A DNA stretch of 56,620 nucleotides from a virus: IMG/VR virus record IMGVR_UViG_3300031566_000038. One strand, 5' to 3'. The translations under genes and the position numbers were made by a program. Under the pieces are notes generated by a model, which did not search any database, was not told the origin of the DNA, and saw only the letters and a list, made by a program, of their open reading frames with translations. Positions 1 through 56,620 of this stretch are shown piece after piece (position 1 is the stretch's first letter; every line of letters starts with the position of its first letter).

Positions 1-14
1 TGTTCTCCAGGATA

Positions 15-37
15 CCCCCTCCTTCAGGTGGGGGAGG
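15..37. repeat. GC-rich hairpin motif CCCCCTCCTTCAGGTGGGGG, copy 1 of 2
   Basis: A near-identical 20-nt imperfect palindrome recurs at 425-444 in the same orientation. No U-tract follows on either strand, so it is not an intrinsic terminator. Confidence 0.5.
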
Positions 38-424
38 AATGGTGAAGCCCTGCGGCGAGCATCGATTCGCTAGAATCGAAACGGTCACCAGCAATAACTT
101 CCAAATCTATAAAAAAGTGAGTGTTTTGCGAAAGCTAAATACTAAAGCCATCCTGGAACACTCAAACCAGTGGTGCATGACAAACCAGCTAGAAAGCTTC
201 GCTGCTAGGTCACGACTTCCCCTCGACCAGTTAAGACAGGTTTTTTTCCTTGAGGCACTGAGTCTTTGAACTCTGTTTAACTCACAAGGCACAGAGCAAC
301 GGACTGGGGCGGCATCCGAAGGTGTGTTGACTAATGTCTCTGTCTTAACGGCTACTAACAACTTTTGTACCTTTCTTTGTTAGTGGTCTGGTCAACTAGT
401 TACCCTTGTAAGTCACCTCACAAG

Positions 425-447
425 CCCCCTCCTTTAGGTGGGGGTAA
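425..447. repeat. GC-rich hairpin motif CCCCCTCCTTTAGGTGGGGG, copy 2 of 2
   Basis: Direct repeat of the 15-37 motif with one substitution. Lies immediately downstream of the ParB-like gene. Confidence 0.5.
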
Positions 448-453
448 TTGACT

Positions 454-1335
454 CTACTTCCTGCTTTTGAGATGTTCTTTTCGCTTAGCTCGCTGCCGAG
501 TTTGTTTGATGGATTCCTCGATTTTCTTGAACTCTAACCTGTTTGCGGCTCGGGCATTGCCATTGTATATCATCAGCATGTCTTCAAGAGTGTCTTTCCA
601 AGTTCGTAGAGCGATTAACCCGGACTTCGACTTCGAAATAGCTTTGTCGAATTTCCTGGCGTCAAAGTCTGGATTGGTAGTCAAAAGAAGCAAAGCTCGG
701 ATGAACGAGCCGCTTTTAGCTTGGATCGAATGGTCTTCTTCTCTGCGGTCGATAATTTGAGAGATCGTCTCAGCGGATTCCATAGCCGTTTTTAATTGGC
801 GATTAGACACCTTGAGTTCACCATCGACAAACAACTTCTTGGCGTTTGGGATCTTTGGCTTCCCCGTCTCATTGTCTAATCCGTAGAGCAATAATAGACC
901 ATTCGCTACATTCAGAAATTCAGGATAGCTGCGAATCAAGTCATGAAGCTTTCTGTAGTTGGGATCTTTTTTGGTGACGAATCGGTGCAGCCTTTCTCTG
1001 TCACTCCAGTCCCGGAACCCGCCATTGTGGTCGCTCATGACGGAAAAATCTACCTCTTCTTTTTCAATTACAGTGTAATAAAAACTAATACCTTCTTCTT
1101 CTTCGGTGCCTTTACAAGCTGTGAATCTGTGCTGACCTGCGGTGATAGCGAATTTGTTGCCCCTCACGACGACAATTATCGGCGACTTTTTGTCGAAGCC
1201 ATGTTTCTCAATCTTCTTTCGTAGTGTTTTTGCATACTCCAGATTCACTTTTCGATTCTCATCGAGGAAAGAAAACTTTGAAAAATCCTCAGTTTTGTAG
1301 ACTCGCAGATCCTCGAAGCTGTCAGTATTGGACAT
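454..1335 (-). CDS. ParB-like nuclease domain protein
   Basis: 293-aa ORF. The segment IIVVVRGNKFAITAGQHRF resembles the ParB/Srx N-terminal box. Basic C-terminal tail. Confidence 0.55.
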   Translation of the reverse strand: MSNTDSFEDLRVYKTEDFSKFSFLDENRKVNLEYAKTLRKKIEKHGFDKKSPIIVVVRGNKFAITAGQHRFTACKGTEEEEGISFYYTVIEKEEVDFSVMSDHNGGFRDWSDRERLHRFVTKKDPNYRKLHDLIRSYPEFLNVANGLLLLYGLDNETGKPKIPNAKKLFVDGELKVSNRQLKTAMESAETISQIIDRREEDHSIQAKSGSFIRALLLLTTNPDFDARKFDKAISKSKSGLIALRTWKDTLEDMLMIYNGNARAANRLEFKKIEESIKQTRQRAKRKEHLKSRK

Positions 1336-1439
1336 AATGTAATCTCCATAGAATTAAAATAAATGTCGTTTGAAAATGTAAGATAGTGGTATAGTCGGAA
1401 ATATCAAGCACAAGTTAAATTTTCAGAGGAGATTCTCGT

Positions 1440-1802
1440 ATGAGCAAGCGAATTGTTGTTTGGGTGTGTTCTGTCGCTATAGCCCTTGTGGTTAGTGGAT
1501 GTACTCAAGAACAACAAAATAAATTGAGTCGAAGTATACAAAATTGGACAGGGACAGATGGTGTTTTAGACGTGATGAGTGATGGCAAGGTTATGTATCG
1601 ATTCATCGCAATAGATAAACTAACTACTGCGACTGCCACCAGTGGTTCGGCATCCCGACCTTACCGCTTCGGATATGGAATCTTCGATAACAATCATAAC
1701 TACAAGCAAGATGCAGGGGAAAAGAAGGTGTATTTCGAAGTTAGTGACTACGGGACTAATTACATCTTTTACGAAAACCCCTTTAAAGGCAGTGTTAAAT
1801 GA
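1440..1802 (+). CDS. putative lipoprotein
   Basis: Signal peptide with lipobox LVVSGC. GAGGAGA Shine-Dalgarno 7 nt upstream of the ATG. Confidence 0.55.
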   Translation: MSKRIVVWVCSVAIALVVSGCTQEQQNKLSRSIQNWTGTDGVLDVMSDGKVMYRFIAIDKLTTATATSGSASRPYRFGYGIFDNNHNYKQDAGEKKVYFEVSDYGTNYIFYENPFKGSVK

Positions 1803-54166: not shown

Positions 54167-54373
54167 TTAAAAAGGGCGTACAGCGATCTCCAATTGGTCT
54201 AAGCGATCCGCAAAGCTTTCGGGCACAGACCGGGCGGCGACGAAGTTAGCTTCCTTTTCAGACTTGGCCAAGATTGTAGTAGGTTTTACTACTAGCTCAG
54301 CTTTGCCGCCGTCCTTGCTTTCTTTCTTGGATGGGTTGTAGATAACCGCATACTCAAATAGTTTACTAGACAT
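54167..54373 (-). CDS. hypothetical protein
   Basis: 68-aa ORF. Confidence 0.35.
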   Translation of the reverse strand: MSSKLFEYAVIYNPSKKESKDGGKAELVVKPTTILAKSEKEANFVAARSVPESFADRLDQLEIAVRPF

Positions 54374-54432
54374 AAAAAGACCTTTCTAAAATGTTCGAAC
54401 ATTCCGAAAGGCTTTTAAAGGTCGTGGCTATT

Positions 54433-55419
54433 TTAGGTGGTTTTCATTCTATGTAATGTGGCAAAAGCATTCCACCACCAATCGTGGTCGGCACCTCTGG
54501 TGTAGGCGGTCACCTTAAGTCGGATGTTATGACCCAACCTGGAAGCATCCGAGGTTTGCAAATTCATAAAACCACTGCTTAGAAGCGGAACTTTGTTTGC
54601 GAATCGGATAAACTCCACCTCGACGGTAAACATATTGTACACACCATCACCCGAAGGAGCGGCTGCGATATTCTCAAAAAGCTTAGTGGTGGTGTTGTAG
54701 TCGGCATTCCAAAAAGCAGCCGACCTTTTACCGAATTCGTTCAACGGCATCTCTACTAAAACCATAGTGTCTACATCGATCGTACCGTCACCCGCTGCGG
54801 GTACTATCATATAACCTTGATAGAGATTGTAGAAAGTATTGGTACCGGCTGATGTAGCAGAGAGCTTCGGAACGAAAGAAACCGAGATCTCATCATTCAA
54901 CGCATCTTTCCACTGAAGGTAGCCCTCGTGGATAAAGGTGTTATTGACTACGCTGTTCAAGTCTAAATAGGCCGATTCTGTAGTAGGGTTACCAATCTCA
55001 TGATGCCCTTTTAGTTTTTGGTTTTCAGGTACGTCACCCCCTATCAAAGAAGCATTAGCTTGATCGTCCGAAGCGCATGTAAAATAGGTTGTAGTGCCAG
55101 GGACTCTGGACGTTTGGTGGACCGGAATTTTAGAACCATCCATTAACCCGGAATCCGTAGGCGGTTTAGCATCCAGATAGGGTTTGTAGTTGGTTACAAA
55201 ATCTGTGTGATCCGCATTAACATACCGCCAATGCCCTACGGGATATATGTTTGTGAAGTAAGTATAGTTGTTGTGCTTCACAAAGCACAAAAAATAGACT
55301 CCACTTGACAGACTTTTTCTGTGATATTGCAACGGAGTCGAATCTGAGATATGCCCCTTTAGGTTTGTCCAGGTTTCCTTAACCGGTCGCACAAAATTAG
55401 TGCTATTCGCTTTAAGCAT
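54433..55419 (-). CDS. putative structural protein
   Basis: 328 aa, beta-rich. Abuts the next gene with a 2-nt gap. Confidence 0.55.
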   Translation of the reverse strand: MLKANSTNFVRPVKETWTNLKGHISDSTPLQYHRKSLSSGVYFLCFVKHNNYTYFTNIYPVGHWRYVNADHTDFVTNYKPYLDAKPPTDSGLMDGSKIPVHQTSRVPGTTTYFTCASDDQANASLIGGDVPENQKLKGHHEIGNPTTESAYLDLNSVVNNTFIHEGYLQWKDALNDEISVSFVPKLSATSAGTNTFYNLYQGYMIVPAAGDGTIDVDTMVLVEMPLNEFGKRSAAFWNADYNTTTKLFENIAAAPSGDGVYNMFTVEVEFIRFANKVPLLSSGFMNLQTSDASRLGHNIRLKVTAYTRGADHDWWWNAFATLHRMKTT

Positions 55420-55421
55420 TA

Positions 55422-56369
55422 TTAGTCACCTCCCGAGGTAGCGGTGTGCCAACCGTTTACAACCGCCATAATCGTGCCAACATTTATTTTATCTTCGTTC
55501 ACTATGGTAATTCTGAAATGATTCTTGCCGTTCCCGATGAAGTCGTTGGGAGGTGAAACCCACATTAAGGAATCTGTAGAGATTTGGTTCCCCACTCTGC
55601 CGATCACCCGGTCGGTCAAACCCAACGGCATATTATCGGGGAAATCTGTAGGTAACCCCGCTTCTAAAGTGATCGTGGACGCCCCAGAATCTTTATCGAT
55701 AACCTTGGCATGAAACCCGGTTTCCGCTACCGTGTCGTAAAAGCAATAGTAGTGGTACCTGCGGATAAGATCTACTTCGCCGTTGGTATTGTGTACCGTG
55801 ATTACAGTGTCACCGCTCGTGTGGGCTCCGTTAACTTTGGTTGCGATGATCTCGTCGCCTCTTACCCACGGGTTGATTCTCATATATTCATCGACAGCGA
55901 TCTCTTCGAACCATTCTAATGTTATCGACGAAGCGACTTGTTCGGAACCACCCTTAAGAAGATTTATCGTAGCGTGACGGCCCGGTGGTAAGACAAAGAA
56001 TTCGGAATAGGTCTCTTCATTCTCTAGCTCTTTTTCAATCACCCAGTTGATACCTTTGTTACCACTGACGTGAGCGAAGTTTTCGTTTACAACGTGCCAA
56101 TCACCATCTTTGGACCTCGGAGGTTGGGTATTGCCTTGCAACCAAGCTAACCCTTTCGCTGGTACAAGAAAATCGTCGGTACCGTCCGCACCTTTGTTGA
56201 CGGTCAAAAAACCCGCACCGACATCAGAGATGACTTTGCTGTCTTCACCCCAATCTTGGAATTCGGATTCTTCAAGATCGTAATAAGCTAAGTAAGTGAT
56301 GGACTGACCGACCCAGACATCATCAACCCCTTTCGTATTCTTTACCCGTACTATCCTGGCCATAAACAA
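55422..56369 (-). CDS. putative structural protein
   Basis: 315-aa ORF. Confidence 0.55.
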   Translation of the reverse strand: MFMARIVRVKNTKGVDDVWVGQSITYLAYYDLEESEFQDWGEDSKVISDVGAGFLTVNKGADGTDDFLVPAKGLAWLQGNTQPPRSKDGDWHVVNENFAHVSGNKGINWVIEKELENEETYSEFFVLPPGRHATINLLKGGSEQVASSITLEWFEEIAVDEYMRINPWVRGDEIIATKVNGAHTSGDTVITVHNTNGEVDLIRRYHYYCFYDTVAETGFHAKVIDKDSGASTITLEAGLPTDFPDNMPLGLTDRVIGRVGNQISTDSLMWVSPPNDFIGNGKNHFRITIVNEDKINVGTIMAVVNGWHTATSGGD

Positions 56370-56373
56370 CCCT

Positions 56374-56586
56374 TTACATATAGAGTTTCACTAAAGGTTT
56401 TTGAACTCCGCTAGCAGTCGAAAGATAACAATTGACCGAATCTCCTGCGGTTACAGCAAAACTAATAGCGGATACTTGTGTTTGTGTACCGACCAATACC
56501 ACTGAAGCGGCAGGGGTGCCGACCGTAGTGTTCACCCTAAATTCCAAAGTTCCCGACGGTGTACCGCCTTGATTTGAAAAGGTCAT
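56374..56586 (-). CDS. hypothetical protein (may extend beyond the window edge)
   Basis: Ser/Thr/Gly/Val-rich 70-aa ORF close to the window end. Confidence 0.35.
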   Translation of the reverse strand: MTFSNQGGTPSGTLEFRVNTTVGTPAASVVLVGTQTQVSAISFAVTAGDSVNCYLSTASGVQKPLVKLYM

Positions 56587-56620
56587 ATTCGTAACACTAT
56601 CGGTAACCGGGGCTACAGCG

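Follow-up and report, generated by a model that had tools for sequence, protein, structure and literature searches.

A word of eight bases, CTACTACA on one strand and TGTAGTAG on the other, occurs in 43 exact copies in a 56,620-nucleotide stretch of viral DNA (IMG/VR record IMGVR_UViG_3300031566_000038; the whole stretch is referred to here as the window), which is part of an uncultured large tailed-phage-like genome. The copies, 23 on the plus strand and 20 on the minus strand, amount to about one per 1.32 kb, and the selection or drive behind them works on the DNA word and not on the protein. The octamer appears to be selected for density and not for the position of single copies, and what would matter is a copy every 1-2 kb per orientation. 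By analogy with phages that are rich in Chi sites, we tentatively suggest, with a probability of roughly 0.3, that the octamer acts as a Chi-like signal, selected for density, to a helicase-nuclease that translocates on DNA, probably a RecBCD/AddAB-type enzyme of the host.

Abundance and positions of the octamer

A dinucleotide shuffle predicts 0.93 copies of the octamer (maximum 5 in 100 shuffles) and a third-order Markov model predicts 2.65, which for the 43 copies observed gives z = 22.7 and makes the octamer the top 8-mer of the window; the next unrelated word has a z below 9. The octamer also ranks first in raw counts, where the next unrelated octamer, AAGAAGAA, reaches 23. The exact octamer is about 16-fold over its Markov expectation, compared with just 1- to 5-fold for the single-mismatch variants, and the series goes on past the window, with 10 copies in the 9.5 kb to the left and 3 in the 8.8 kb to the right. 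The over-representation reported in an initial annotation of the DNA, which had counted about 40 copies divided about equally between the orientations, is thus borne out. The positions given there were approximately right, being off by 0-36 nt, but four copies (5689, 7626, 8466 and 18971) had been missed, and the sites near 25039 and at 44962 match at only seven of the eight bases (GTACTACA and ATACTACA, respectively, the latter just before the ATG at 44971).

The copies are listed below with strand and setting and, where they lie in genes, with the encoded residues; L012, L011 and L007 are related loci.

3073..3080 (-), MVP-like gene 2489-5143(+), sense T-GTA-GTA-G (FVVG)
5284..5291 (+), gene 5198-6250(-), sense TGTAGTAG (NVVA)
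5689..5696 (+), gene 5198-6250(-), sense TGTAGTAG (GVVD)
7626..7633 (-), gene 7580-8293(-), sense CTA-CTA-CAx (LLQE)
8466..8473 (+), gene 8296-8670(-), sense TGTAGTAG (SVVD)
10372..10379 (+), gene 9248-10924(-), sense TGTAGTAG (DVVD)
11011..11018 (+), intergenic, open reading frame (ORF) start 11035 is 17 nt on
12314..12321 (+), gene 11607-13214(-), sense TGTAGTAG (RVVD)
12417..12424 (-), gene 11607-13214(-), sense xCT-ACT-ACA (ATTV)
14319..14326 (-), gene 13215-15452(-), ATTN, aligned position in L012 is a 7/8 match (GGTAGTAG)
15802..15809 (+), gene 15623-15958(-), PVVD
17783..17790 (+), gene 17370-17801(-), NVVD, kept at the aligned position in L012
18042..18049 (-), gene 17798-18499(-), LLQH
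18193..18200 (+), gene 17798-18499(-), YVVE
18971..18978 (-), clamp-like gene 18903-19904(-), VYYK
19121..19128 (+), gene 18903-19904(-), AVVD
19484..19491 (+), gene 18903-19904(-), DVVV
20379..20386 (+), gene 19921-20853(-), AVVV
20838..20845 (-), gene 19921-20853(-), PYYT, aligned position in L012 is TGTAATAG
22336..22343 (-), gene 22225-22824(-), ATTI
22587..22594 (+), gene 22225-22824(-), YVVG, kept in L012 and L011
24460..24467 (-), vWA-like gene 22853-24991(-), NYYN, kept in L012 and L011
25058..25065 (+), intergenic, divergent region 24992-25145, 7/8 copy (GTACTACA) about 20 nt upstream
25741..25748 (+), gene 25377-26294(+), STTD
29658..29665 (+), between the RRM gene and gene 29723-30073, inside a 50-aa ORF uncalled by public gene callers
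32375..32382 (-), gene 32364-32750(-), TYYI, aligned position in L012 and L007 is TGTAATAG
35555..35562 (+), class-I SAM methyltransferase-like gene 35118-35762(-), PVVD
35751..35758 (-), N-terminus of gene 35118-35762(-), M-T-T-T-E
36129..36136 (-), gene 35811-37427(-), STTT
37887..37894 (-), intergenic, about 31 nt upstream of the start of gene 37446-37856(-)
38120..38127 (+), beta-helix gene 38022-39620(+), TYYK
40923..40930 (+), gene 40900-41442(-), SVVE
42305..42312 (-), collagen-repeat gene 42243-44813(+), YVVE
43847..43854 (-), collagen-repeat gene 42243-44813(+), GVVG
46069..46076 (-), intergenic (45964-46234)
46666..46673 (+), NMNAT/NUDIX gene 46235-47383(+), GYYK
46699..46706 (+), NMNAT/NUDIX gene, DYYK, forms with the 46666 copy the sole pair less than 100 nt apart (33 nt, same orientation)
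49582..49589 (+), intergenic, touches the start codon of gene 49187-49579(-)
49998..50005 (-), gene 49975-50475(-), IYYI
50752..50759 (+), gene 50547-51281(+), TTTK
51861..51868 (-), gene 51421-52311(+), TVVV
54275..54282 (-), gene 54167-54373(-), PTTI
54979..54986 (-), gene 54433-55419(-), PTTE

Selection on the DNA word

Some features of the octamer could suggest that its excess is an artefact of codon usage, dipeptide usage or low complexity. The octamer shares sequence with (TAC)n and (ACT)n, local runs of it are produced elsewhere by proteins rich in Thr, Val or Tyr (among the IMG/VR matches listed), and the dipeptides VV, TT and YY are 1.3-1.4 times over expectation in the window. This explanation is refuted by a synonymous-codon shuffle done within each gene, which keeps the protein sequences and the per-gene codon usage: 1000 shuffles gave 4.58 ± 1.94 copies in coding sequence, with a maximum of 11, against the 38 observed. 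The initial annotation had proposed a codon-preserving shuffle as the check on its view that the signal lies at the level of DNA and not of protein, and the outcome upholds that view, as the excess is not one of codon or dipeptide usage. At 38 of the 107 positions (36%) where the protein permits the octamer synonymously the octamer is present, compared with about 4% predicted by the shuffle, and by context the occupancy is 8 of 11 for x-Y-Y-[IKMNRST] and 18 of 43 for x-V-V-[ADEGV]. Moreover, the copies are dispersed singly in about 30 genes and at five intergenic sites, and syntenic relatives that encode the same proteins lack the octamer. An artefact of coding is therefore essentially excluded. 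The excess of VV, TT and YY dipeptides hints that the protein sequence also gave way a little to the octamer.

The sense strand reads TGTAGTAG 18 times, always as T-GTA-GTA-G (Val-Val), and CTACTACA 20 times, as Thr-Thr (9), Tyr-Tyr (8) or Leu-Leu-Gln (3). The frames described earlier (GTA-GTA for VV, TAC-TAC for YY and ACT-ACA for TT) were right, and CTA-CTA-CAx for LLQ occurs as well. The octamer thus uses four of the five stop-free frames, in both coding orientations (sense:antisense 20:18), and it is this use of frames, together with the synonymous shuffle and the 36% occupancy, that places the selection or drive on the DNA word.

The unit is exactly eight bases long, in that A follows CTACTAC in 80% of cases and C precedes TACTACA in 75%, and its flanks carry no conservation save a T at -1 in 19 of the 43 copies. 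It has a G+C content of 37.5% and, unlike palindromes of the type of highly iterated palindrome 1 (HIP1), is not its own reverse complement. Microsatellite slippage was rejected as the source of the octamer, as the (TAC)n register is lost at the eighth base and there is no preference for ACTACTACA. A hidden-stop ("ambush") role or recoding of TAG was likewise rejected, given that half of the copies are antisense, the standard code leaves 91% of the window open and there is no suppressor tRNA. A drive by very-short-patch-type repair was also set aside; T variants at the C positions (TGTAATAG, TATAGTAG and TGTAGTAA) are not depleted.

The distribution of the copies bears on a possible role as a promoter or terminator element, comparable to the T4 octamer TATAAATA or the mimivirus octamer AAAATTGA. 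A few copies do lie just before starts (11011, 37887 and 49582, with the 7/8 copy at 44962), as the initial annotation had pointed out, and a subset of a second enriched word, described in the next section, lies 16-70 nt upstream of same-strand starts. However, copies upstream of starts are not above chance: 38 of the 43 are intragenic, without preference for either coding strand, and the five intergenic copies are in line with a non-coding share of about 8.7%. Within genes the position of the octamer is uniform (Kolmogorov-Smirnov p = 0.27), and no second conserved element was seen at a set distance from it. The T4 and mimivirus promoter octamers are intergenic, oriented with the gene and at a fixed distance from it, and the octamer is none of these. 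A transcription signal is therefore very improbable and largely refuted, and we regard this reading, too, as essentially excluded.

Spacing between copies is random to slightly even (coefficient of variation 0.79 vs 0.96, p≈0.08). The order of orientations is patternless, with about 23 runs by hand count against about 22 by chance, and shows no polarity switch beyond gene orientation. There are no inverted pairs of the octamer in the window. A literature search with either spelling of the octamer as a motif found no paper, and the octamer matches no described Chi sequence, uptake signal sequence (USS), DNA uptake sequence (DUS) or HIP sequence.

A second enriched word

The initial annotation did not extend to a second word, to the lineage specificity of the octamer or to a one-base variant of it in a more distant relative, which are described in this section and the next. 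The heptamer TGTAAGA is present in 36 copies against 10.4 expected under the third-order Markov model. None of the copies is followed directly by A, and the second base downstream is A in 26 of the 36.

1377..53611, both strands, second word TGTAAGA[C/G/T]A (reverse complement T[G/C/A]TCTTACA), 36 copies, for example at 12982, 13394, 13586, 16476, 20627, 20663 and 22874

In coding sequence TGTAAGA[CGT]A occurs 32 times, compared with 7.3 ± 2.4 in the synonymous shuffle, an approximately fourfold excess, and it is found in all open frames and on both strands. The copies in genes are mostly antisense (22 vs 8), six are intergenic by the ORF set of the analysis, and about eight are those located 16-70 nt upstream of same-strand gene starts. 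The two words are not co-located in the window, their median nearest distance being 538 nt against 517 nt expected.

The words differ in how their sites are shared with L012, a member of the nearest related lineage. Seven of 11 TGTAAGA sites are common to the window and L012 (background 11.9%, p = 7e-5), whereas octamer sites are shared at aligned positions with that lineage in 3 of 14 cases (background 9.3%, p = 0.13). By this comparison of aligned sequences, the second word is maintained site by site and the octamer as a density with fast turnover of sites.

Lineage specificity and dialects

About 100 related loci were gathered by means of the 712-aa vWA-like protein, the major vault protein (MVP) homologue and the ParB-like protein encoded in the window. 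Lineage B (L280 and L012) has 65-68% protein identity to the window and 70% nucleotide identity in aligned genes. The octamer is the top 8-mer there as well and is half as dense (15 copies in 42.9 kb vs 1.1 expected), and lineage B also carries TGTAAGA[CT]A. Lineage C (L282 and L007), with 53-57% protein identity and 40.6% G+C, is nearly devoid of TGTAGTAG; it has instead the one-base variant TGTAATAG, of which there are 12 copies in 37.6 kb vs 1.3 expected, along with TGTAAGAGA and TGTCTTAGA. None of the octamer, TGTAATAG or related words was found in about 60 more distant relatives. By these comparisons the octamer is specific to this phage lineage.

The top 9-mers of all three lineages, with that of the window as lineage A, fit the frame TGT-NNN-A-N-A. 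In A and B these are TGTAGTAGA, TGTAAGACA, TGTAAGATA and TGTAAGAGA, and in C they are TGTAAGAGA, TGTAATAGA and TGTCTTAGA, with AAG/CTT as the central triplet in both orientations. All three lineages have the ParB-like gene, in a syntenic position.

Some of the distant relatives carry other words. L061 and L103 each have 4-5 dispersed copies of HIP1 (GCGATCGC), a cyanobacterial word, against about 0.05 expected, and L092 has 6-7 dispersed copies of AGTGCGGT/GTGCGGTT, which resemble the core of the Pasteurellaceae USS. Members of this phage group may therefore mirror host-specific words, and the words could serve as host clues for L061, L103 and L092. In another relative the top word, GGTACTGG, proved to be a tandem coding repeat for Gly-Thr-Gly and not a dispersed word.

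By megablast the window has no nucleotide match to 50,697 phage records, and at the protein level it shares just about 27-32% identity with AR9/PBS1-, ViI-, phiRSL1-type and Vibrio jumbo phages. The same sequence, at 99.93-100% identity, is present in several ENA, JGI and Logan metagenome assemblies, in contigs of up to 87.5 kb (its source samples include JGI 3300031565 and 3300031578 and ENA ERZ27256808, ERZ27256827 and ERZ27256834); these population variants hold no usable polymorphism at the motif sites.

Search for a host and bacterial operators

Three alternating copies of the octamer, each no more than 30 nt from the next, were sought in 185,579 species-representative genomes; the scan gave 41 matches against about 0.004 by chance, all of them local operator or repeat clusters. 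Dispersed copies were absent from the 8 kb around each of the 41 matches, and no host emerged. The scan would return about 0.5 match per 5-Mb genome at the density of the phage, about 4-10 at twice that density and about 0.01 at Chi-level density. The result thus weakly disfavours a well-sampled host clade saturated with the octamer, as such a clade should have shown in the scan, and says nothing on Chi-level densities.

Many of the clusters are inverted repeats of the form CTACTACA-N2-3-TGTAGTAG(-N3-CTACTACA) that immediately precede repressor genes of the Penicillinase_R (BlaI/CopY) family, in Woeseiaceae and Verrucomicrobiae. Among the genome loci L238-L278, those linked to Penicillinase_R include the following.

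L242 2293-2321, octamer cluster linked to Penicillinase_R
L251 3796-3824, octamer cluster linked to Penicillinase_R
L260 2972-2999, octamer cluster linked to Penicillinase_R

Similar clusters are present in Actinomycetota (next to SBP_bac_5 genes), Patescibacteria and Thermoplasmata, and others of the matches are repeats that resemble repetitive extragenic palindromes or miniature inverted-repeat transposable elements. The clusters look like an extended "TACAnnTGTA" operator common across phyla. Since the octamer is the half-site of operators upstream of Penicillinase_R genes, it can be read as a half-site by a winged-helix protein. In a scan of IMG/VR for two copies within 30 nt, every multi-copy match among those listed is a Thr/Val-rich coding repeat of tail-fibre type.

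The closest named cellular homologues of the phage MVP are in metagenome-assembled genomes of Myxococcota/Kofleriaceae (43-46% identity). A Myxococcota host was considered because of these homologues. One 18.5-kb Myxococcota locus has three copies of the octamer, all C-TAC-TAC-A in Tyr-Tyr pairs, as expected anyway from codon bias at 68% G+C, and is thus uninformative.

Comparison with Chi-rich phages

By what kind of reader could such a word be recognized? The octamer is an exact, asymmetric 8-mer that ranks first in the window, recurs about once per 1.3 kb with indifference to placement, comes near saturation, turns over while its density is kept and has a dialect, and for these reasons we infer a reader that tracks along DNA, namely a helicase-nuclease that processes DNA ends. 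This enzyme would probably be the RecBCD or AddAB of the host. Once it ran into a correctly oriented octamer, the enzyme would stop degrading DNA and start to load RecA, and linear or concatemeric phage DNA would thereby be spared and channelled into recombination-dependent replication. If the genome is circularly permuted as a result of headful packaging, ends would arise anywhere and the enzyme could enter from either side, which would account for the equal numbers on the two strands. The octamer would have been written into the genes mostly by synonymous choice (GTA-GTA, TAC-TAC, ACT-ACA and CTA-CTA-CA).

Chi is the sole word of this kind for which enrichment by a phage in its own genome has been documented, and among known phenomena the octamer is closest to that of the Chi-rich phages, a comparison by analogy that does not establish its function. 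The RecBCD-dependent phages LLS, P1 and MD8 carry 23 Chi sites (1 per 1.86 kb), 50 (1 per 1.9 kb) and 32, respectively; the Chi of the E. coli phages P1 and LLS is GCTGGTGG and that of the Pseudomonas phage MD8 is GCTGGCGC (Zheng et al., Genome Res 2025, PMC12315714). In these phages Chi is the top octamer, near-cognate octamers are frequent, codon usage is no explanation and sites "come and go", whereas phages with a recombination module of their own lack Chi enrichment (PMC12315714). The octamer resembles Chi in these phages in being non-palindromic, the most frequent octamer, present once per 1.3-1.9 kb and mostly in genes, in having raised near-cognates and an excess that codon usage does not explain, and in an abundance that differs sharply among related phages. 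Both strands are used in the window (23:20), as in the headful phage P1, where the first 50 kb have 15 Chi sites on one strand and 12 on the other. The difference between the E. coli and Pseudomonas Chi has a parallel in the shift between TGTAGTAG and TGTAATAG among the lineages, and the octamer is, like Chi, a short (5-8 nt), exact, non-palindromic word without a flanking consensus. That the sequence is unfamiliar is no objection, because Chi has been established for just a handful of species and most bacteria have no known Chi (PMC8022716). Of the roles offered in the initial annotation, a Chi-like one fits best.

Several points weigh against a Chi-like signal. The octamer is unrelated in sequence to the Chi of these phages and, at 37.5% G+C, is A+T-richer than known Chi, which is G/C-rich. 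In cos phages Chi is oriented toward the DNA end where the enzyme comes in; LLS and MD8 have a strong bias of this kind (PMC12315714), and the window has neither this bias nor terminal clustering. A second enriched word coexists with the octamer in this phage, and a single Chi leaves the enrichment and the conserved positions of TGTAAGA[CGT]A unexplained; the TGT-NNN-A-N-A frame of the top 9-mers in three lineages would rather suggest a family of sites bound by protein. It is common for large lytic phages to shield their DNA ends or to bring recombination genes of their own. The LLS/P1 class is characterized by the lack of a Rec module and of a RecBCD inhibitor of its own. In the phage, about 75 kb of a genome of at least 87.5 kb were read, where most ORFs have no match and two-thirds of the genes carry no annotation, and this part gave no recombinase, annealase or Gam-like protein. 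Finally, the defining property of Chi is recognition by the RecBCD or AddAB of the host, whose nuclease is thereby attenuated and RecA loaded, and Chi is over-represented in the host core genome and co-oriented with replication; for the octamer, both would be expected by analogy.

Alternative readers of the octamer

An alternative is that the reader is encoded by the phage, with the octamer as the loading or binding site of a sequence-specific DNA protein that marks, coats or organizes the chromosome and co-evolves with the word. Candidates would be the ParB-like protein (454-1335), an unrecognized winged-helix or ribbon-helix-helix protein, or a nuclease that spares word-bearing DNA. We consider this unlikely on balance, though it accounts for much. 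Related words are kept in three lineages whose protein identity falls to about 55%, with a stepwise change from TGTAATAG to TGTAGTAG, the frame of their top 9-mers is shared, the sites of the second word are conserved in position as true binding sites would be, the ParB-like gene is syntenic throughout, and no host genome saturated with the octamer came out of the scan. The operators of BlaI, MecI and CopY (the "TACAnnTGTA" box) have the same 8-mer as a half-site, in keeping with an octamer that a protein can read; however, those operators consist of one or two such pairs, inverted and located at a promoter, whereas the window has 43 scattered single half-sites, never in inverted pairs, and no Penicillinase_R gene. 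No other specific DNA-binding domain was found in the window except a weak CopG-like match (48866-49201), and no candidate reader was identified. Sites for ParB (parS) and Noc (NBS) are 14-16-bp palindromes, unlike the asymmetric 8-bp word. The octamer sites, in addition, are weakly conserved in position, 15 viral contigs with distant ParB-like homologues show no comparable dispersed word, and there is no precedent for a phage protein that needs about one site per kb inside genes. The initial annotation had also named the HNH nuclease and the ParB-like protein as possible partners, and no link of the octamer to either gene (34588-35205 and 454-1335) could be shown. A more elaborate form of the same idea, which we hold to be somewhat less likely still, is that the octamer forms a phage-autonomous mark of "self" jointly with TGTAAGA[CGT]A and with the dialects of the relatives (TGTAATAGA, TGTAAGAGA and TGTCTTAGA). 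A tracking enzyme or clamp encoded by the phage, such as a helicase-nuclease or the ParB-like CTPase-fold protein, would read sites of the TGT-NNN-A-N-A type, such that phage DNA is spared or organized and unmarked host DNA is degraded; this would be a virus-owned, co-evolving, Chi-like system for telling self from non-self.

It is also conceivable, if doubtful, that the octamer is a genome signature of the host copied into the phage, either an uptake signal of the USS/DUS kind or the product of a HIP1-like repair or mutation drive, acquired through host-phage exchange or under the same drive. Like the Haemophilus USS (AAGTGCGGT) and the Neisseria DUS, the octamer is a short non-palindromic word present about once per kb on both strands, mostly in coding sequence and in permissive frames, with single-base dialects such as are known for DUS; with HIP1 it shares density, strand symmetry and iteration within coding sequence in several frames. 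HIP1 is mirrored in the phages of its hosts, and the phage group of the window itself holds known host words in L061, L103 and L092. However, USS and DUS are traits of the chromosomes of competent bacteria, phages carry them at lower density, and they have an extended flanking consensus and frequent inverted terminator pairs, both of which the octamer lacks. HIP1, in turn, is a palindrome linked to methyltransferases, whereas the octamer is asymmetric and no methyltransferase partner was seen: no DNA methyltransferase family has a match in the window, the sole match being a generic class-I S-adenosylmethionine (SAM) fold at 35118-35762. A large phage of lytic type would need a density equal to or above that of its host, and the genome scan, a weak negative, found no locus with dispersed copies, which weakens the uptake word put forward in the initial annotation. 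More improbable again is a DNA-modification or nicking system of the phage or the host, for which each octamer would carry a modified base or a single-strand interruption, with density selected for protection from host nucleases or for packaging or ejection. Specificities of Type IIG, Type III and bacteriophage exclusion (BREX) systems are typically non-palindromic words of 6-9 nt with lineage-specific single-base changes, as is the octamer, and the HNH nuclease gene (34588-35205) adjoins the methyltransferase-fold gene (35118-35762), although the product of the latter matches generic small-molecule-type families and no DNA methyltransferase family. Sites of restriction-modification are normally avoided or neutral in phages, not enriched 16- to 40-fold. 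Sequence-specific nicks are carried by some phages (T5, phiKMV), but such nick sites are few and on one strand only.

If the octamer is Chi-like, an uncultured phage would reveal the recognition sequence of the RecBCD or AddAB of its host and, as few Chi are known (PMC8022716), would supply a sequence tag for linking phages to host bins in metagenomes. The strategy of having many Chi sites and no recombination system of one's own, as in lambdoid phages and P1, would then extend to a much larger and very different lineage of environmental phages. If the reader is instead phage-encoded, this would be the first case known to us of a dense sequence word with which a virus marks its own chromosome. 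In both cases, the 36% occupancy, the quick turnover of sites between relatives and the one-base dialect shift make the phage a clean system in which to study how density selection writes a DNA word over coding sequence.

Other features of the window

The window also encodes a 5'-3' exonuclease, DnaJ, virion structural proteins and a subtilase. Its other annotated features are as follows.

212-452 (-), complete HEARO RNA (Rfam RF02033, IscB-type omega RNA; 122.5 bits, gathering score 83)
454-1335 (-), ParB-like gene (phrog_12305, E = 2e-12)
2489-5143 (+), full-length MVP homologue (MVP_shoulder E = 3e-27, Vault_3, Band_7)
18903-19904 (-), clamp-like gene
20854-22182, DnaB-type helicase
22853-24991 (-), vWA-like gene, conserved 712-aa protein
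27074-27232 and 27393-27448 (+), adjacent tRNA-Phe(GAA) and tRNA-Ile(GAT)
29303-29620 (-), RRM_1 RNA-recognition-motif protein (E = 8e-22)
31025-31408 (-), small protein with a weak FYVE-type zinc-finger match
34588-35205, HNH nuclease gene
35118-35762 (-), class-I SAM methyltransferase-like gene, generic small-molecule-type families and not a DNA methyltransferase
38022-39620 (+), beta-helix gene
42243-44813 (+), collagen-repeat gene
46235-47383 (+), bifunctional NMNAT (CTP_transf_like) and NUDIX gene
47394-48770 (+), NAMPT

The HEARO RNA lies directly 3' of the ParB-like ORF and is also found at 10884-11124 of L232; no recognizable IscB or HNH ORF is next to it. Lineages B (L280) and C (L282) lack this RNA at the syntenic place, so that in the phage it has the look of a recent insertion or an orphan guide RNA. 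The MVP homologue is kept in related phage lineages. A third tRNA-like match, weak and partial (30 bits), is located 160 nt downstream of the tRNA pair. The RRM_1 and FYVE-type zinc-finger domains are both uncommon in phages. An ORF of unassigned function at 11035-11610 (+) holds an internal tandem duplication at 11125-11511 (offset about 168 bp, 84.5% identity), and a 2520-aa ORF without a Pfam match is situated just past the right end of the window (L235 1484-9046), in a part where the octamer is less dense. The NAMPT gene adjoins the NMNAT/NUDIX gene, and the two form an NAD+ salvage pair (46235-48770, plus strand); pairs of this kind serve phages against NAD-depleting defence.

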